Of a stretch of DNA of 12,187 nt, positions 2,600 to 10,865 are shown one piece after another. The number at the start of each line of letters is the position of its first letter. Position 1 is the stretch's first letter. Made by a program: the position numbers and the translations under genes. The notes under the pieces are model-generated. The model saw nothing but the letters and a program-made list of their open reading frames with translations. It made no database searches and was not told where the DNA came from. Source of the DNA: a virus (taxonomy: Duplodnaviria > Heunggongvirae > Uroviricota > Caudoviricetes); IMG/VR virus record IMGVR_UViG_2713896785_000025; one strand, written 5' to 3'.

Positions 2600-3142
2600 T
2601 TACTCGCCTTTCTTCTGTAGCAACTTTTCCGGTACGTTTCCGGTTGTTTCTTTCAAGTAATCAGCCAGTATCTGTGGGAGGTTGTCGGCAACTCTGGCAC
2701 TGGCATTACAGGCTTTAACCACTTCCCTTTTAAGCCTGTCCAGCATGGCGGGGGGAATCTGTGGGAAGCTCCTTTGCATAGTAAGCGGGAGGATGTCCAT
2801 GATTGATGAAATCTGACTCGCCAGCTTTGAAAGCGCGTACAGGCAAAACTCAGTATCAATCACGTCACCGCGATCGCGATCGTTTTTAAGTTCCTGCGCC
2901 TCTGCCTGTGCTGTCAGTAATCTGATCCTGACTCGTAAAAGTTCATCATCGTCAATCTCGCCTTTGTCGTTTATAAGCTGGCTAATTGCATTGTTAACCC
3001 TATTTTCTATCACGCTGGCAACATCATAAAACGCCTCACGGCCTTTACGCTCAACGGGAGTTACTCCCCACTTGTCGAACGCTGTCGCACTTACACGGCA
3101 GCTTTTCGCCATGTTTTTTTTGTTCATCAGATGAGATTTCAT
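2600..3142 (-). CDS. Terminase small subunit, lambda Nu1-like (180 aa)
   Basis: Blocks shared with lambda Nu1 as recalled: NKK near N-terminus, LT(A/R)AQA(E/D)AQELKN.RD, (E/A)FC..(A/V)LS, ILPL(T/S)(M/V)QR.FP, LKR(E/D)(V/I)(V/I)KA. SD-like GGTG before ATG 3140-3142. Confidence 0.85.
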   Translation of the reverse strand: MKSHLMNKKNMAKSCRVSATAFDKWGVTPVERKGREAFYDVASVIENRVNNAISQLINDKGEIDDDELLRVRIRLLTAQAEAQELKNDRDRGDVIDTEFCLYALSKLASQISSIMDILPLTMQRSFPQIPPAMLDRLKREVVKACNASARVADNLPQILADYLKETTGNVPEKLLQKKGE

Positions 3143-3250
3143 TAATACACCAACTTAATTACTGCTTCAGGTTGGTGTATTGCTTGCATCTTTCCCTTTT
3201 CATTCATAAAGATAGATCAAACAACAAAACCACCACCACCCCCCTGAAAA

Positions 3251-3319
3251 GGCTCATAAATAGCGAAAATCCGCGAGGTCTCCGCCCCGTAACAGGTCCA
3301 TATGCCGGAAAGGACCCGC
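3251..3319 (-). other. Second lambda-type cos (cos2) in minus orientation: cosQ-like flank, cosN-like GGGCGGAGACCT (rc of 3276-3287, one mismatch), proximal cosB-like sequence, about 135 bp upstream of terS start
   Basis: Minus strand reads GCGGGTCCTTTCCGGCATATGGACCTGTTACG GGGCGGAGACCT CGCGGATTTTCGCTATTTATGA, closely matching the lambda right-end/left-end junction as recalled. Confidence 0.7.
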
Positions 3320-3341
3320 AAAAAAGCCGGATTTCTCCGGC
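3320..3341 (-). terminator. Intrinsic terminator (copy 1 of a thrice-repeated motif)
   Basis: Minus-strand RNA: hairpin GCCGGAGAAAUCCGGC followed by U6; 7 nt downstream of stop of gene 3348-3761. Confidence 0.6.
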
Positions 3342-3347
3342 CTTGTC

Positions 3348-3761
3348 TCAGATGGTTTTCAGTATGCGATCGATGTCGCCGTCATCGCCCGGGTTTCTGC
3401 CATCGTATGCCATGCCAGCTGATACGGCTTGTGGGCTGTGCATGTCCATAAAGTTTTCAAAGGCTGCGGTAAGCTCTGGTGCAACCTTCGGGCGTTCCTG
3501 CTCTATGGTCATGTTCAGGATGTTTTTAGCCGTATCAACATCAATACAAGGCACGTTTGCCATTGCACGTAACAGCGGCTGATAGTCGTCAGATTCATGA
3601 AGCGCCATAATCGCATCAGCGCGCGGCTTGTCCTTCTCTTCCAGGCTGTTAAGTTGATATACGGCCTCGTAGGTTGATAAACCTCTGTCAGCCATTGCCC
3701 GCGCTTCGGCTTTAAATTTACTCGCCAGCGGTAGCGTCATGATACTTTCATTCGTTGCCAT
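3348..3761 (-). CDS. Hypothetical protein (137 aa), between decoration gene and terS
   Basis: ORF with SD-like AGGGGGA upstream of ATG; 12-nt gap after the upstream gene stop; no recognisable motif. Confidence 0.65.
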   Translation of the reverse strand: MATNESIMTLPLASKFKAEARAMADRGLSTYEAVYQLNSLEEKDKPRADAIMALHESDDYQPLLRAMANVPCIDVDTAKNILNMTIEQERPKVAPELTAAFENFMDMHSPQAVSAGMAYDGRNPGDDGDIDRILKTI

Positions 3762-3773
3762 CGTTCCCCCTGC

Positions 3774-4109
3774 TTATCGCGCCAGCGGCTGAACGGATAC
3801 GCCAGAACCCGCAAAGGCGGCGCATTTTTTCGCGTCGGTGTCGGCGCTCTCAGGCCAGTTAACGGCGGCAATATTGAATATCCCCGTCTTGTAGCACTGT
3901 GCTGATTTCTGCGTCGACGTGTCCACGGGGTACGAGGTCAGATAAACAGCCTTGCCAGATTCCTGACCATCCCACGGCTTAAACTCGCCATTTTCCGCCA
4001 GCATCAGCGGGGTAAATTCCTGAATAACGCCAGCATCAGCAGCAAAATGTACCAGCGTCGTGGATACCTGCTGACTACCTGCAAATAACTCAATGTATGG
4101 AGTGTCCAT
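3774..4109 (-). CDS. Head decoration protein, lambda gpD-like (111 aa)
   Basis: Motifs shared with lambda D as recalled: TPLML, WDG, YK(T/S)G(I/T)F, WPE, KK..AFAG; same length class; SD GGGGGGA in 12-nt spacer after MCP stop. Confidence 0.85.
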   Translation of the reverse strand: MDTPYIELFAGSQQVSTTLVHFAADAGVIQEFTPLMLAENGEFKPWDGQESGKAVYLTSYPVDTSTQKSAQCYKTGIFNIAAVNWPESADTDAKKCAAFAGSGVSVQPLAR

Positions 4110-4121
4110 AGAATCCCCCCG

Positions 4122-5177
4122 TTAACCAATTTTGACGGTAACAAATTTGCGAATATCTGCCGGTACCGGCTGCGGTGCGCTGTGCGTCTGCACGTACTCA
4201 ATCGCCGGATCGCCGTCCTCAATCCAGTTTTTCGGGTAAAACATGTTTTGCGTTGCGCCCGTTCTGACCGCTTCCTGATCCATAATCGCACCATAGGCCA
4301 CCAGCCCTTTATTGTTGGTGTTACCCAGGACCAGCAAATCAGGCTCAAGGAAATATTTTTCGGTGCCGTCGCTGTCAGTGTATTTGCCGGAATAGACGAC
4401 AAGGGCAATATCGCCCAGATAGCCTTTAAAGCTCACCACTTCACCCAGGTTTTTACAGGCCAGTTCTGCGGCGGATTCTGAACCACGGGAAAGGTCGTAC
4501 AGTTCGCGGAATTTTTTAAAGCTGCGTAACGTGCGCCATACTTCAGCGCCCATAATCATGACGTTTGCGGGGCAATTGCCCTGATCAGCATAAAGCTCGA
4601 TGTCATAGATTGGATCGTGTGTTTCTTTATCCAGCTCAGACCATTTTTTACCGTCAGCCTGTTCTATGATATTGCTTTCCGGGATCTTCCAGTCGATTTC
4701 ATAGCGTTCTATGCCTTCGCCCTCAATGAGGTTTTTTCCGGTCGTTACCGCATTCACCGCCAGCCATTCCACGCGTGCCTTAATGGCGTTTATCTGGCGG
4801 CGCATGTTGCCAGTAATCAGGCGCATACGGCGATAGGTAGGATCGTTAAGCTGTGCCGGATCTTCTCCAGCCATGCGCATGATGGTTTTTGTTGGATCGA
4901 TTTCGTGTTTGGGTTTCATGTAGCCTGGTTTAATCGTGCTGGTTTCGTACCCTTTATCGCGCTGGACCTGACTACCCACCATAGGCGAACAGAACGCTGA
5001 CATCGTAACCTCTTCAATGTCCAGGGTGTCCAGCATGATGTTCTGGGTGTTGAAGGTCGCCACGTTCGGGAAAAACAGCGTGGTAAACAGCGGACTGAAT
5101 TTAAATTCTGCAATATCCCCGCGATTCAGGTACGCGAAAAGCTGGTTAGTGTTAAGTGCCGTTGCTTTGCCTGCCAT
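4122..5177 (-). CDS. Major capsid protein, lambda gpE-like (351 aa)
   Basis: Motifs shared with lambda E as recalled: (K/E)FKF.PLF..LFF, PGY(V/M)KPKHE, EDP..L.DP.YRR.R, YSG.Y, YPKNW...GDPA, SAP. Strong SD GGAGGTGA; start overlaps upstream stop (TAATG). Confidence 0.9.
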   Translation of the reverse strand: MAGKATALNTNQLFAYLNRGDIAEFKFSPLFTTLFFPNVATFNTQNIMLDTLDIEEVTMSAFCSPMVGSQVQRDKGYETSTIKPGYMKPKHEIDPTKTIMRMAGEDPAQLNDPTYRRMRLITGNMRRQINAIKARVEWLAVNAVTTGKNLIEGEGIERYEIDWKIPESNIIEQADGKKWSELDKETHDPIYDIELYADQGNCPANVMIMGAEVWRTLRSFKKFRELYDLSRGSESAAELACKNLGEVVSFKGYLGDIALVVYSGKYTDSDGTEKYFLEPDLLVLGNTNNKGLVAYGAIMDQEAVRTGATQNMFYPKNWIEDGDPAIEYVQTHSAPQPVPADIRKFVTVKIG

Positions 5178-5985: not shown

Positions 5986-6258
5986 TTAGCTGTCCTGGTA
6001 ATTGCGCCATATTTCATCACCAGCACCATCTATACCCATTTCGGCATAAGTGCGATCGACTGCCTTTTTCAGGTCTCCGAAATTATCCGGCGGCTCCGGT
6101 GCCCTCTGTGCCTTCCTTGAACATTCCAGCCGTCGCATCGTGATGTGATGCCGTTCCTTGTCTGTCTCCACCAGCTGCATGACTTCACCCCATCGCGCCG
6201 CCGCCCTCCGGTAAAAGCCTTTCGCCTCCAGTTCCTCCGCTATGCGGTCATGTACCAT
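5986..6258 (-). CDS. PerC-family transcriptional regulator-like protein (about 90 aa; start refined from the 130-aa track ORF)
   Basis: N-terminal motif D.IAEELEAKGFYRRAAARW typical of the PerC/Pch family as recalled; internal ATG at 6256-6258 has SD GAGGGGG 5 nt upstream, and the SSB stop codon lies within that SD. Confidence 0.6.
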   Translation of the reverse strand: MVHDRIAEELEAKGFYRRAAARWGEVMQLVETDKERHHITMRRLECSRKAQRAPEPPDNFGDLKKAVDRTYAEMGIDGAGDEIWRNYQDS

Positions 6259-6268
6259 CGTCACCCCC

Positions 6269-6679
6269 TCAGAACGAAATATCATCACCGTAAGGGTCAT
6301 CGCCTCCCGCTGGTGGCTGATTACCCTGTGTGCCTGTGGTTTTGCGTCTGTTCCCGCCTGGACGTGCCGCGCGGGCACTGATTACGCTGTCTGCGATAAC
6401 CTGCCAGCCCTGCCGCGTTTCTCCGTTCTGTCCGGTCCACTGGCTTACCTGCATCGTGCCGGATACGCTGGCAACATCGCCTTTTTGATGTTTAGCCAGG
6501 AAGTCGGCCTGTTTGCCAAATGCGATGACCGATAACCATAACGTCGCCTGTCCGTCCTGTGCCTGGCTGCATGGCAAAGATACCGCCATACGCGCCAGCG
6601 TCATCGGTGTGCCCTTGCTGGTCTGTTTTACCTGCGGGTCGTCCACCAGCCGCCCGTAAGCGGCTATCTGTGCCGTCAT
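6269..6679 (-). CDS. Single-stranded DNA-binding protein homolog (136 aa)
   Basis: OB-fold blocks align with E. coli SSB as recalled (GRL..DP, FGK.A, W..Q.G..R); Gly/Gln-rich linker; acidic C-terminal tail GDDISF (host tail is DDDIPF). SD GGAGAGGTGG; ATGA overlap with upstream gene. Confidence 0.8.
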   Translation of the reverse strand: MTAQIAAYGRLVDDPQVKQTSKGTPMTLARMAVSLPCSQAQDGQATLWLSVIAFGKQADFLAKHQKGDVASVSGTMQVSQWTGQNGETRQGWQVIADSVISARAARPGGNRRKTTGTQGNQPPAGGDDPYGDDISF

Positions 6680-6927
6680 AATTCCACCTCTCCGGTTTTA
6701 ACGTTGATGGTTGTTACCTGTTCCGCTTCGGCAATCTCCCGTTCTGTCAGCGTGGCAAAGTTTGCCGCCGCCGTGGTCATGAATGCGCTTATCAGGTCGG
6801 GATGTTCCTTCGCGTATCCTTCCCGCGTGTGGCGGTCTATCGTTCTGATTGCCACCTTTAAGGTGTGCTCAGTCATGTCTAACGCTTTATATTTTGGCTC
6901 TGTTCTGTCTCTGCGTTTTTGGGTCAT
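6676..6927 (-). CDS. Hypothetical protein (83 aa from ATG; track ORF uses GTG at 6957)
   Basis: ATG at 6925-6927 (rc) with GAGAGG 9 nt upstream; GTG start would place iterons inside the coding sequence. Confidence 0.5.
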   Translation of the reverse strand: MTQKRRDRTEPKYKALDMTEHTLKVAIRTIDRHTREGYAKEHPDLISAFMTTAAANFATLTEREIAEAEQVTTINVKTGEVEL

Positions 6928-6939
6928 TTCTCGCAACCT

Positions 6940-7130
6940 CTCACTTTTTCGCCTCACTTTTTCAAGCGTCTCACTTCGTCGCAGTTGGGATTTTCGGTTT
7001 TTCTATGTGTGTGTTTCATAAGTATTTTTTTACCCCTCACTTTTGAGGATGTATACAGGTCGAAAAGTGAGGGAGAGCGGGCTAATTTTGGCCCTCTTTC
7101 TATCCCCCTCGCTTTTGCTCCTCACTTTTA
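6940..7130. repeat. Iteron array / candidate origin of replication (CTCACTTTT repeats, one inverted) with AT-rich tract
   Basis: CTCAC(T)4 at 6940-6949, 6953-6962, 7036-7045, 7121-7130; variants at 6970-6978 and 7108-7117; inverted copy AAAAGTGAG at 7063-7071; AT-rich stretch 7001-7034; immediately downstream of replicase gene. Confidence 0.6.
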
Positions 7131-8528: not shown

Positions 8529-8871
8529 TTCTTGCCCCTGAATCCGTTAATCATGGTTTTCAGCTTCTGGATGTTTGCCCGTGCCCTGGCGTTGCTGGTG
8601 GGCACGTTATGCGGCGCGGTCTGTACCAGAGAAAAATCACGCCGGAACTGATAAACAGGCATCACGCAATCATATTCGTAACCTTCACGNNNNNNNNNNN
8701 NNNNNNNNNNNNNNNNNNNNNNNNNNNNNNNNNNNNNNNNNNTGATTTTTGTTTGTCGCGTTCATTGTCGCCAAGTGTTTCAAGCCATATGCGCAATATT
8801 TCCAGCATGTTTTCACTGTGAGAAAGTGCAAGAAATGCGCGGTCTATTGTTTGGTGGTAAATATCACGCAT
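8525..8871 (-). CDS. Hypothetical protein interrupted by assembly gap (N-terminal 43 codons 8743-8871; C-terminal 54 codons 8528-8689 plus stop 8525-8527)
   Basis: Both fragments are open right up to the gap edges; ATG 8869-8871 with SD GAGGA; C-terminal frame ends with TGA overlapping replicase ATG. The stated gap length (53) is not a multiple of 3, so continuity is unproven. Confidence 0.45.
8690..8742. other. Assembly gap (53 N)
   Basis: Run of n characters in the sequence. Confidence 1.
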
Positions 8872-9328
8872 GGCTTACATCCTCAGGAAATTTTCTTCTA
8901 TAACGCGCCTCTGCCACATATTCCGCATAATCGGCGGCGATATTCAGTACATCAAGCCCCGTTGATTTATATTCTCTCGTGGAAAGTAAGAAAAAAGCCG
9001 CTCTAATAAGTTCTGGCATTGACGAAAGCGCATCAGCCGCATCATCAGGAACGCCGGAAAATTCCTGTTTCAGGGAATTAAAACGATCATCACGCATAAC
9101 CCCCCCATTTTCACAATCAGCAATCAGGATGGCTTTGGCCTCATTCAGCGCCATATCCGCACTAAGTTGCATAACCGCCAGCGAATGAGGAACGAAAGCC
9201 CCGGCATATTCTGTTTCACTGGTGGCGTGCTTATGCGCCATGTCTGCGATAACAGAAATATCAATCAGCGCGTGCATTAGCGTTATGATGGCTTCGGCGG
9301 CTGCGTCCGGACGGATGTTATTGCACAT
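8864..9328 (-). CDS. Hypothetical protein (154 aa), first clearly supported gene of leftward early operon
   Basis: Near-consensus SD AGGAGGTG 5-6 nt upstream of ATG 9326-9328; stop overlaps next start by 8 nt. Confidence 0.65.
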   Translation of the reverse strand: MCNNIRPDAAAEAIITLMHALIDISVIADMAHKHATSETEYAGAFVPHSLAVMQLSADMALNEAKAILIADCENGGVMRDDRFNSLKQEFSGVPDDAADALSSMPELIRAAFFLLSTREYKSTGLDVLNIAADYAEYVAEARYRRKFPEDVSHA

Positions 9329-9524
9329 GGCACACCTCCTGACGAATACGGGCAGCGAATACCATCACGCAGCCAGCCGGAGATTGCTGGCGTGCTTCCT
9401 GTTCGCTGGTGGCCTCAATGGTAATCACGCGCGGTTGTGCCGTGCTCAGGGCGATAAAACGCCAGATGTATTTATTCAGGTTGTGCGAGTCCCGCCCTTG
9501 CGGGTGTGTGGTATGATTTCTCAT
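9318..9524 (-). CDS. Possible small protein (68 aa); C-terminal part of the 342-aa track ORF
   Basis: ATG at 9522-9524 (rc) with GAGGT 4 nt upstream; otherwise unsupported, and it contains the SD of the next gene. Confidence 0.25.
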   Translation of the reverse strand: MRNHTTHPQGRDSHNLNKYIWRFIALSTAQPRVITIEATSEQEARQQSPAGCVMVFAARIRQEVCHVQ

Positions 9525-9620
9525 AGCTACCTCGATACTTTCGCTATCGTTGGTGGTTAGAAGCCCGGTTAGTGTTAGCGCACTGCCGGGTTTCGTCGTT
9601 TCTGCACCTTGCGCCAACAA

Positions 9621-9674
9621 GGTGTTGAACACCAATTTAAACCCAGGTGTTAAACACGTCAAGTGTTGAACACT
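9621..9674. promoter_or_regulatory. Three palindromic operator-like sites GTGTT-N-AACAC with candidate rightward promoter
   Basis: GGTGTTGAACACC 9621-9633, GGTGTTAAACACG 9646-9658, AGTGTTGAACACT 9662-9674 (centres 25 and 16 bp apart). -35 TTGAAC 9666-9671 inside site 3, 17-nt spacer, -10 CATACT 9689-9694, upstream of ORF 9724. Confidence 0.6.
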
Positions 9675-9723
9675 TATTTTTTTTCCTGCATACTGCATTT
9701 GTTTTTTATGAGGGGTACACCAC

Positions 9724-9903
9724 ATGGCGACAAAAGCAGTAAACGCAAAATCACAAACCGTTGCGGCAAGGGTTCCGCATGAAGTTATGAACAATGTTGA
9801 GGCGGTAAAAATGCCTGGCGAAAGTACGGGGCAATTTGTTACTGCAGCATTAAAACGAGAAGTTGAATATCGCCAGCGGCGCAAGGCCAAAGAACCAGAG
9901 TAA
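9724..9903 (+). CDS. Small DNA-binding protein, ribbon-helix-helix-like (59 aa)
   Basis: Not in ORF track (below size cut-off). ATG 9724 with SD GAGGGG 8 nt upstream; pattern beta-strand TVAARVP, helix, loop GES, helix resembles Arc/CopG-type RHH; basic C-terminus. Confidence 0.55.
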   Translation: MATKAVNAKSQTVAARVPHEVMNNVEAVKMPGESTGQFVTAALKREVEYRQRRKAKEPE

Positions 9904-9960
9904 TCACCATCAGCGCCGTGGTGTAAGGTATTACGGCGCATTGCTATGCAGGACAACACA

Positions 9961-10134
9961 ATGACCGATAAAGAATTGACCAAAACATTATCACCGGCAC
10001 GGAAAAGACGGCGCAGAAAGATAGAGCATGAATCAGAAAGATTCGCGCCATGTGCTTTTGCCCTTGAGCAATTCCTTAAAGAGTACAGGGAAAAGCGCTC
10101 ATTGCAGGTATGGCAACGAACTGAACCAGACTGA
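9961..10134 (+). CDS. Small basic hypothetical protein (57 aa; track ORF starts at 9946)
   Basis: ATG 9961 has SD AGGA with 7-nt spacer; Arg/Lys-rich segment RKRRRRK; followed by terminator. Confidence 0.45.
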   Translation: MTDKELTKTLSPARKRRRRKIEHESERFAPCAFALEQFLKEYREKRSLQVWQRTEPD

Positions 10135-10228
10135 TAGCATTGCCCACCAGCCTGATAGCGACTATCATTGCCGTTCTTATGTTTGGGATCACACACACAA
10201 ACGGCGCAGCGGGTTATCTGTTCAGAAA

Positions 10229-10257
10229 GGCGGCTCCATTTCGGGGCCGCTTTTTTT
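10229..10257 (+). terminator. Intrinsic terminator for rightward transcript
   Basis: Stem GCGGCTCC/GGGGCCGC (one G-U pair), loop ATTTC, then T7 on + strand. Confidence 0.65.
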
Positions 10258-10403
10258 ATGTCTGAAAAACCCCAATTTTGTTGTTTTTCAGTTTCACCAG
10301 GGCGAACGAATCCCCGCCCACGTTCTGGCGTATATTCAATCTTCATGGTTATAGCTCTGTGTTCAGATGATTGATGTGTGGCGGCTGCGTGCCGCCAGCG
10401 TGA

Positions 10404-10592
10404 TTAATGAACTGCCTTGCAGCTATCCTTCCAGGCCAGAACCTCGGATAAAGACCAGCCAACGGAACGACCGCCAAGTTTACGACGTGATGGGAATTGT
10501 CCGGCCTTTTCCAGGCGGTAGCGACACGTACGGCTAAGGCCGGTTAGTTTTTCGCATTCTTTTTCACGTATAAACCGATCAGTGCTTAACAC
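10404..10592 (-). CDS. AlpA-family transcriptional regulator (about 62 aa from GTG; track gives 89 aa from TTG at 10673)
   Basis: HTH block LTGLSRTCRYRLEKAGQFP..RKLGGRSVGWSLSEV.AW typical of AlpA/Phage_AlpA as recalled; GTG at 10590-10592 (rc) preceded by SD AGGGGGG with 5-nt spacer; no internal ATG. Confidence 0.8.
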   Translation of the reverse strand: MLSTDRFIREKECEKLTGLSRTCRYRLEKAGQFPSRRKLGGRSVGWSLSEVLAWKDSCKAVH

Positions 10593-10865
10593 TATTGCCC
10601 CCCTTTCGTTTCTTAAAGAGTCATCAGGTGTCTTATTGTGTCGTATTGTTCCCGCTAGAGTGATGAATGGCAAATATTGAGGATGTATGATTTACAGAAA
10701 ATGAAACAGTAAGAATAAAATCTTTTAAATTCATGTTAATACAAAGGCATAAAATATTGTTTCATGCCTTTTTTCTCACGCGTTAAAGCGTTATTCGCTA
10801 ATGTATAAAAAAACAGTCACACAAATAAAATCAGTCACTTATAAACCTGTGTACTTTTTCGCCTC

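Follow-up and report, generated by a model that had tools for sequence, protein, structure and literature searches.

A predicted repressor-operator array, a candidate antisense RNA and a conserved open reading frame in the control region of an Escherichia coli phage satellite

How phage-inducible islands of Gram-negative bacteria (PICIs) are kept silent is a question for which the literature offers only half of an answer. AlpA is the only regulator shown experimentally for these islands, in which it activates island genes, whereas a global repressor is stated to be unclear (PMC6092414). The stretch of viral DNA analyzed here (IMG/VR record IMGVR_UViG_2713896785_000025; 12,187 nucleotides, referred to as the window) contains the control region of one such island. 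The RefSeq annotation of the identical locus lists an integrase, an alpA-type HTH protein, a RepA helicase, SSB, PerC, capsid, decoration protein and TerS between phoQ and roxA, in agreement with Pfam and PHROGs. This 11-kb arrangement corresponds to the int-alpA-replication-packaging layout, the 10–15 kb size and the fixed chromosomal site of Gram-negative PICIs, although induction and transfer by a helper phage were not examined. A DNA search of the phage collection found no match. A sequence-only reading had described three GTGTT-N-AACAC palindromes, spaced by 25 and 16 bp, between a leftward early operon and a rightward small-gene module, with the third overlapping the rightward -35. It had compared them with an operator array governing a lysogeny-like switch, had dismissed as spurious a Cys-rich 342-aa ORF that crosses the operators and a terminator, and had left open the existence of a small gene at 9318-9524. 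The observation itself is confirmed by our analysis. Its interpretation is supported only in part, as the operator array and the small gene hold, but the verdict on the long ORF is too simple and a conserved structured RNA went unseen.

The three palindromes, exact matches to GTGTTNAACAC, are located at 9622-9632 (O1, GTGTTGAACAC), 9647-9657 (O2, GTGTTAAACAC) and 9663-9673 (O3, GTGTTGAACAC), with start-to-start spacings of 25 and 16 bp. When up to one mismatch is allowed, the window holds 4 matches against 0.34 expected by chance, and none of 200 shuffled sequences reached 4. The sites lie between a leftward operon that starts with the ORF 9318-9524 and a rightward 59-aa gene at 9724-9903. A promoter scan revealed a leftward promoter-like site, P_icd, at 9634-9662 on the - strand, with a -35 TTGACG (9662-9657), a 17-nt spacer and a -10 TAAATT (9639-9634), and an inferred start near 9627. 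O1 lies just downstream of this -10, over the inferred transcription start, and O2 is placed in the spacer and abuts the -35. The rightward promoter, P_ylcI (9666-9694, + strand), comprises a -35 TTGAAC (9666-9671) that lies inside O3, a 17-nt spacer and a -10 CATACT (9689-9694), followed by a Shine-Dalgarno GAGGGG at 9710-9715. This promoter was identified by eye and, at 8 of 12 matches, falls below the threshold of the scan, but relatives carry TATACT or CATACT at the same place. The layout recurs in all relatives, with sites at -102 and -77 from the ylcI ATG plus a third site that, in most other operator types, sits at -32, at the ylcI transcription start, rather than at -61. The -35 TTGA(C/A)(G/A) and a TAnnnT -10 of the leftward promoter are conserved across operator types, and in 152 of 155 loci a GTG-N5/6-CA site directly abuts the TTGA of the -35.

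The 59-aa product of the rightward gene (+ strand; WP_000201461.1) belongs to the YlcI/YnfO family (NCBIfam NF041551), with 59.7 bits over residues 9-50 against a curated cut-off of 30, and is so named in RefSeq. Its variable sites are distributed 5/9/32 over the three codon positions. Across 152 related loci, 15 variants of residues 11-16 map one-to-one onto operator sequences, and QT[VILF]AAR proteins that are only 63% identical overall still share GTGTTNAACAC. The invariant Arg16 parallels the invariant GTG/CAC ends of the sites. By contrast, operator type is uncoupled from AlpA type and from the replication gene, a RepA helicase in the window but a primase in one relative (L174) that carries the same ylcI. 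In another relative, L173, a different small RHH-like gene with its own ATGGTAATTACCAT sites occupies the same slot. The YlcI-like protein is therefore the likely repressor, although binding was not assayed. It is probably a ribbon-helix-helix (RHH) protein. The variation in residues 11-16 and the repeated sites over the promoters agree with the Arc/MetJ/CopG mode, in which specificity is set by alternate residues of the N-terminal strand. The fold itself was not demonstrated: an AF2 model of the monomer (pLDDT 80) displays helices at 19-28 and 35-56 but no strand, Foldseek found nothing significant (best E 6.7), the full-domain profile match to the Arc repressor has an E of 1.3, and hhalign gives a probability of 4.7%. 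These results, obtained without a model of the dimer, neither establish nor exclude the RHH fold. Pfam gave no significant family, only weak hits, some of them to RHH-type families.

The small gene at 9318-9524 (- strand) is real. Its 68-aa product scores 69.8 bits against the Icd-like family NF033153 (residues 19-62; cut-off of 25), is annotated in RefSeq (WP_001403026.1) and matches phrog_6196 with an E of 1.6e-46. The gene has its own Shine-Dalgarno (GAGG), and its stop overlaps the start of the next ORF (ATGTGCAATAA). Only weak purifying selection is seen, with substitutions of 21/26/33 by codon position. The name rests on family assignment alone, as inhibition of host cell division was not measured, and PHROGs labels the same family 'transcriptional repressor'.

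A candidate cis-antisense small RNA of roughly 80 nt lies on the + strand at 9525-9603. Hairpin 1 (9525-9558) covers the icd-like Shine-Dalgarno, and hairpin 2 (9560-9594), which is the hairpin that the long ORF crosses near the operators, would act as a terminator together with a U-rich tail. The fold has an energy of -35.1 kcal/mol and a z-score of -4.68. Of its 25 pairs, 11 show compensatory changes, and 96% of the cells are paired, against 38–45% when the structure is slid; 0 of 500 shuffles reached the covariation score. The strand asymmetry is strong, with 104 G-U cells on the + strand against 2 A-C cells, a consensus energy of -33.4 kcal/mol on the + strand against -8.1 on the other, and a more stable + strand in 28 of 28 sequences, by 13.5 kcal/mol on average. 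The element occurs as exactly one copy, always antisense to icd, in 40 of 41 loci, including two loci not used as seeds that carry the other RHH type. An extended -10 (TGgTATGAT), read from the sequence at 9509-9517 on the + strand, lies inside codons 3-5 of icd-like. A TAnnnT hexamer was found in the searched interval in all 93 distinct relatives, at 36-38 nt from the linker motif in 78 of them and preceded by TG in 61. However, the -35 is poor and the U tract is interrupted (UUUCGUCGUUUCU). A search of Rfam at gathering score found nothing in the window. Below that threshold, SymR (RF01809) matches over model positions 1-77 from 9525, one base from the icd start codon, with 33.3 bits in the window and 35.9-45.9 bits in relatives, against a gathering score of 61. 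Reciprocally, the model built here hits the annotated symR of E. coli MG1655 over its full length, with 28.4 bits and an E of 7.5e-5. The RNA thus shares with SymR the two hairpins, the 5' end next to the start codon and the antisense position over the ribosome site, without reaching the score for membership. No C4, isrK or int-alpA RNA was found, and no C4 or isrK match appeared even at E values up to 5.

The 342-aa ORF extends from 10346 to 9318 on the - strand in the icd frame, which is open from the alpA stop (10404-10406) onward, and runs antisense through ylcI and across the switch. The alpA gene (10404-10673, - strand; PF05930, 60.4 bits) lies upstream in the same frame. Across the intergenic region the icd frame is free of stops in 70 of 84 distinct relatives, against 0 and 2 for the other two frames, which contain 384 and 468 stops in total. 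Intergenic lengths are 187, 190, 193, 199, 202 and 211, all 1 mod 3. Both this openness and the frame relation to ylcI are conserved far beyond chance, and the open frame reaches the alpA stop or enters alpA. In one relative (L022) the ORF begins with a genuine Bro-N domain (54.3 bits), but no Pfam domain is found in the 342-aa product of the window, so that membership of the Bro network is not supported for this product. Substitutions in the extension show no codon-position bias (23/22/20 and 12/12/13), and hence no amino-acid constraint is visible. The ATG at 10346 has a weak ribosome site, 14 of the 84 relatives have stops in the frame, and L173 also has the frame interrupted. The ORF crosses the intrinsic terminator of the rightward unit (10222-10256, + strand; a 12-bp stem plus U7), which has a folding energy of -21.9 kcal/mol on the + strand but is much weaker when read on the - strand (-14.7 kcal/mol, tail CUUUCUG).

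Based on these results, we propose, with moderate confidence, that the region is the silencing and commitment switch of the satellite and consists of three layers. In the first, a dimer of the YlcI-like protein would bind the three palindromes, with O1 and O2 covering the start site and spacer of the leftward promoter that drives the icd-like, replication and packaging operon and O3 covering the -35 of its own promoter, and would thereby shut the operon and limit its own synthesis. In this view, replacement of T and A at residues 12 and 14 by K and E is anticipated to redirect binding to GTGTCAGCCAC. In the second, the antisense RNA would pair with the 5' leader and ribosome site of icd-like and block leaky translation and, because icd-like overlaps the next ORF, should also reduce expression of the genes downstream. 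In the third, when the helper phage switches on the alpA side, ribosomes could translate the long ORF through the antisense ylcI gene, the operators and the antisense-RNA target, and carry transcription into the operon despite the switch, as Eta translation does in phage P4. What the analysis establishes is the sequence features, their conservation and their covariation; every step of binding, transcription and translation is inferred, as no direct evidence of any of them was obtained.

Among the alternatives, the one that survives best, although unlikely, is that the 342-aa ORF is a meaningless shadow ORF whose openness has no function. The ORF lies in the antisense frame whose third positions coincide with those of ylcI, where shadow ORFs are common, its peptide is odd, Cys-rich and unconstrained, and RefSeq calls the 68-aa form here. 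However, a shadow effect does not explain about 65 stop-free codons across AT-rich promoters and operators in 70 of 84 distinct sequences of more than 12 operator types, while the other frames average 4.6 and 5.6 stops, nor length changes only in steps of 3, nor the Bro-N start in L022. Less likely, the hairpins would work only in the sense-strand leader of icd, as an attenuator, a stability element or a processed C4/CI-type RNA, without a separate antisense RNA. P1 c4 and P4 CI are made from the sense leader upstream of icd or kil (PMC10111431), and expression data were not available for this locus. The strand specificity of the structure, the absence of C4 or isrK matches, the -10 conserved upstream on the + strand and the U-rich tail in the sequences inspected argue against this reading.

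It is also improbable that the palindromes are sites for AlpA, whose gene lies 700 bp away, or for a host factor. Window-type operators occur with at least three different AlpA or excisionase types, and the AlpA type of the window occurs with other operators in the relatives L160, L154 and L155, whereas operator sequence tracks residues 11-16 of the YlcI-like protein. In addition, the half-site centers are only 6 bp apart, which suits a beta-ribbon reader better than a helix-turn-helix dimer. That the whole 342-aa sequence is a functional protein is similarly doubtful: it is annotated as an Icd-like protein in many NCBI records, on at least 1000 contigs, and relatives carry a Bro-N domain, but the extension lacks codon periodicity, its operator-encoded part differs completely between types, and the Bro-N part is deleted in the window, where only about 24 N-terminal residues are shared. 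Finally, although short repeats near replication genes are typical of origins and P4 ori uses octamer iterons, the reading as iterons for the RepA helicase was rejected because the same ylcI and operators sit next to a primase in L174, the palindromes sit exactly on promoter elements, and separate iteron-like repeats (CCTCACTTTT, three copies, about 84 bp apart) lie just downstream of the helicase gene at 6945-7129.

Among the closest known systems is the nested eta/kil immunity region of phage P4, which the region mirrors. In both, a long ORF lies directly downstream of the alpA homologue (vis in P4) on the same strand, with a shorter gene nested in frame at its end (kil in eta), a promoter inside the long ORF (PLE in P4; the conserved site at 9634-9662 here) and a small RNA that controls, or here would control, the transcript made from it. 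In P4, translation of Eta from the upstream promoter overrides immunity (Forti et al. 1999, as summarized in PMC10111431); prevention of termination by translation was not measured here, and only the conserved open frame supports it. The region differs from P4 in that the RNA is cis-antisense on the opposite strand instead of a CI/C4-type RNA, and in that a protein repressor gene with its own operators is embedded antisense inside the long ORF. In the P4-type region the long ORF encodes a Bro-network protein, a relation shown here by the Bro-N domain in the relative L022 and not by the product of the window. The comparison rests on analogy. A tblastn search of the phage collection with the Icd-like protein (E <= 0.01) returned a single, prophage-derived record that was not P4, and whether P4 is in that collection was not checked.

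The SymE/SymR pair of E. coli K-12 likewise comprises an RNA of about 77 nt with two hairpins, transcribed from a -10 inside the first codons of its target (PMC1891008), but the target here is an Icd-like gene in a satellite and not the SOS-induced symE, and no LexA control is evident. In phage P22 immI (Mnt, Arc, ant, sar RNA), small RHH repressors act on operators over divergent promoters together with a short antisense RNA that covers a ribosome site. Arc is the best PDB sequence match to the YlcI profile, albeit not significant, but there is no antirepressor gene in the window, and the gene order and target operon differ. In phage P1 immI, a small icd gene heads the operon, and an RNA blocks its translation and thereby the genes behind it, but c4 is made from the sense leader and acts at short complementary sites. 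Among PICIs (EcCICFT073, EcCIEDL933, EcCIMP1), published work describes AlpA as an activator, and YlcI/YnfO and Icd genes are listed in PICIs and cf-PICIs of Enterobacter (PMC13612085). No repressor, operator array or antisense RNA turned up for these islands in the papers that could be searched, and literature searches for the RNA sequence, for YlcI/YnfO function and for PICIs together with RHH proteins or antisense RNA found nothing relevant.

The region offers a concrete candidate for the missing silencing system, and it is widespread, since 1743 of 5426 complete E. coli genomes match at least part of it and it occurs in at least 15 repressor/operator specificity types that are swapped as cassettes. 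It links the orphan YlcI/YnfO family to a function and the SymR RNA to mobile elements, and explains why annotation pipelines disagree between 68-aa and 342-aa Icd-like proteins. A more far-reaching possibility, which we consider unlikely but not excluded, is that an ORF of roughly 1 kb without constraint on its peptide is kept open only so that ribosomes can escort alpA-side transcripts past the antisense repressor gene, its occupied operators and the antisense-RNA target. Translation itself would then be the device that overrides satellite immunity and, in addition, the chromosomal SymR antitoxin RNA of E. coli K-12 would descend from this family of satellite immunity RNAs.

Two further elements were observed near the switch. 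The fourth near-palindrome, at 10582-10592 inside alpA and over the RefSeq alpA start, is unchanged in loci with other operator types and was rejected as an operator, being probably a chance match. An inverted repeat, CACCTTG-N6-CAAGGTG, is located next to O1 at 9600-9629 (- strand), where it would form a 5' stem-loop of the icd transcript; no role is assigned to it, but ACCTT/AAGGT arms are present in several operator types.

The window is identical to a stretch of the E. coli E2865 chromosome and holds an island of about 11 kb between phoQ and roxA. The RefSeq annotation lists, in order, an integrase, an AlpA-type regulator, a YlcI/YnfO protein on the opposite strand, an Icd-like protein, small hypothetical proteins and a DUF4222 protein, RepA helicase, SSB and PerC, and finally the major capsid protein, head decoration protein and small terminase. 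Searches against Pfam, NCBIfam and PHROGs agree with this assignment, which is the layout of a Gram-negative phage-inducible chromosomal island (PICI). The island carries its PerC-family regulator and its own major capsid, head-decoration and small-terminase genes (5986-6378 and 2600-5177) but no portal or protease, unlike the capsid-forming PICIs described so far. A run of 53 N (8690-8742) interrupts the window inside the small leftward ORFs (RefSeq hypothetical protein WP_001204981.1). Parts of the 1-kb switch region match 1743 of 5426 complete E. coli genomes.

The three palindromes noticed in the sequence-only reading are real and are located where that reading placed them. They are GTGTTGAACAC at 9622 (O1), GTGTTAAACAC at 9647 (O2) and GTGTTGAACAC at 9663 (O3), and are spaced 25 and 16 bp apart. 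When one mismatch is allowed, the window contains 4 matches against 0.34 expected, and none of 200 shuffles reached 4. The fourth match is a one-mismatch palindrome, GTGCTTAACAC, at 10582-10592, which overlaps the GTG start of the RefSeq alpA CDS; it is unchanged in loci with other operator types and is, therefore, probably due to chance. A promoter scan revealed a leftward promoter-like site composed of TTGACG (9662-9657), a 17-nt spacer and TAAATT (9639-9634), which places O2 in the spacer, O1 over the start site and O3 just upstream of the -35. O3 also contains TTGAAC (9666-9671), followed 17 nt further on by CATACT (9689-9694) and then by GAGGGG, which precedes the ATG at 9724. This rightward promoter was identified by eye; it scores 8 of 12 and falls below the threshold of the scan. 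An inverted repeat, CACCTTG-N6-CAAGGTG (9600-9629), abuts O1, and its ACCTT/AAGGT arms recur in several operator types with different loops; it could be a 5' stem-loop of the icd mRNA or a further protein site.

To address which protein binds the sites, 10 loci were retrieved through the Icd-like protein and 160 through the YlcI-like protein. All share one architecture, with a divergent small gene, a site at -102 and a site at -77 from its ATG, a third site, and a conserved leftward promoter whose -35 is abutted by the -77 site in 152 of 155 loci. Because the loci are related, these counts do not represent independent events. The third site is found at -32, at the ylcI transcription start, in most types, and at -61 in the window type. 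The sites always have the form GTG-N5/6-CAC, but the core differs between loci and maps one-to-one to residues 11-16 of the YlcI-like protein. Thus QT[VILF]AAR is paired with GTGTTNAACAC, QSVTAR with GTGTCTTACAC, KKLEAR with GTGTCAGCCAC, QALKAR with GTGTGGCCCAC and KRIDAR with GTGTGGGACAC, among 15 strand variants in all. Proteins that are only 63% identical overall but share QTxAAR keep the operator of the window.

By contrast, operator type does not follow AlpA, since at least three AlpA or excisionase types occur with the operators of the window and the AlpA type of the window occurs with other operators. Neither does it follow the replication gene. In E. coli strain 139 (locus L173) the slot of ylcI is occupied by a different, unannotated 57-aa RHH-like gene (MSTPLEKRSPPYQMRLPEDF...RGIEPKG; 2325-2498 of that locus) with two ATGGTAATTACCAT palindromes of its own, where PGAP instead calls a pseudogene on the other strand; two further loci, L007 and L008, carry related proteins. 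Repressor and operators, so, move together as a cassette.

The best PDB sequence match to the YlcI profile is Arc repressor, which aligns over the whole domain but without significance (E 1.3). In that alignment the variable residues 12 and 14 and the invariant Arg16 fall on the base-contacting strand positions of Arc. The monomer model displays the two helices but no strand, and a fold search returned nothing significant, so that the ribbon-helix-helix fold is probable but not shown. The interpretation given in the sequence-only reading, a repressor-operator array controlling a lysogeny-like switch together with a spurious 342-aa ORF, is partly supported.

The small gene that the same reading could not exclude is real. 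ORF 9318-9524 encodes a 68-aa Icd-like protein (NF033153, 69.8 bits against a cut-off of 25), has a GAGG ribosome site, and its stop overlaps the next start (ATGTGCAATAA). The Icd-like families phrog_6196 and phrog_1743 are labelled 'transcriptional repressor' in PHROGs, whereas NCBIfam calls them cell-division-inhibitor-like; the two names conflict, and neither function was tested here. Downstream of ylcI, a 62-aa ORF on the + strand (9946-10134) matches phrog_21027 (58 bits) and is shared by islands with either repressor type. It lies in the frame whose third positions coincide with the long ORF and shows only weak codon periodicity (24/28/35); whether it is a gene is unresolved.

A candidate antisense RNA had been overlooked in this region. 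Rfam gives a sub-threshold SymR match on the + strand at 9525-9597 (33.3 bits against a gathering score of 61, E 3.6e-4), and the stretch 9525-9603 folds into two hairpins at -35.1 kcal/mol (z -4.68). It starts one base from the icd start codon and is preceded by TGgTATGAT (9509-9517), while the second hairpin is followed by UUUCGUCGUUUCU. In an alignment of 28 diverse relatives the consensus has 25 pairs, of which 11 show compensatory changes; 96% of cells are paired, against 38-45% when the structure is slid, and no shuffle out of 500 reaches the covariation score. The structure belongs to the + strand, as there are 104 G-U cells against 2 A-C cells, the consensus energy is -33.4 kcal/mol on the + strand and -8.1 on the other, and the + strand is more stable in 28 of 28 sequences.

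A covariance model built from this alignment finds exactly one copy, always antisense to icd, in 40 of 41 loci, including loci with the other repressor type. Its best hit in a 7-kb MG1655 segment is the annotated symR, over the full length, at 28.4 bits and E 7.5e-5, although the E-values of this model are rough. The symR model of Rfam also hits four divergent relatives at 36-46 bits. SymR is likewise made from a -10 inside the first codons of symE and covers its ribosome site (PMC1891008). The Rfam int-alpA RNA (RF02996, 62.8 bits) is present in one relative, at 264-329 of locus L011, with no such match in the window. Variants of hairpin 2 are shuffled independently of operator type, a pattern that would fit a separate specificity determinant.

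Dismissal of the 342-aa ORF was initially anticipated here as well. Its extension has no family match in the Pfam and NCBIfam searches, and substitutions there show no codon periodicity (23/22/20 in 9525-9723 and 12/12/13 in 10135-10346), in contrast to ylcI (5/9/32). The frame, however, is conserved as open. In 84 distinct icd-ylcI spacers from more than 12 operator types, the icd frame has no stop in 70, whereas the other two frames on that strand carry 384 and 468 stops in total and are stop-free in 0 and 2 sequences. Spacer lengths are 187, 190, 193, 199, 202 or 211, all of them 1 mod 3, which keeps the long frame in register with ylcI on the other strand. The open stretch is usually 160-380 codons and begins at the alpA stop codon, as in the window, or inside the 3' end of alpA.

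In one relative, locus L022, the same ORF begins with a genuine Bro-N domain (54.3 bits against a cut-off of 25.6) and then runs antisense through ylcI and across the switch into icd. The window keeps only about 24 N-terminal residues of that form. NCBI records carry both the 68-aa and the 342-aa forms, and also 134, 199, 304-310 and 430-aa forms, all under one name. The terminator at 10222-10256 is strong on the + strand and weak on the - strand.

This is the arrangement described for phage P4, in which eta, a Bro-network gene coupled to the alpA homologue, contains an internal promoter and the immunity RNA, and kil is nested in frame; translation of full-length Eta from the upstream promoter prevents termination (PMC10111431). 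We therefore read the 342-aa ORF as the positional analogue of eta and icd-like as the analogue of kil. What the analysis establishes are sequence features, their conservation and their covariation, and every functional step described for the region is inferred from sequence. In this view, openness is selected, while peptide sequence is not.

The individual parts are of kinds already known, but their combination was not found in the papers that could be searched. It comprises a repressor gene embedded antisense in a long, unconstrained ORF, operators inside that ORF that coevolve with the repressor, and a SymR-like cis-antisense RNA in place of a C4/CI RNA. The PICI literature names only AlpA as regulator and calls a repressor unclear. 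Elsewhere in the island, iteron-like direct repeats (TTTT-N4-CCTCACTTTT, three copies about 84 bp apart) lie at 6918-7129, just downstream of the RepA helicase gene, and constitute a likely replication origin.
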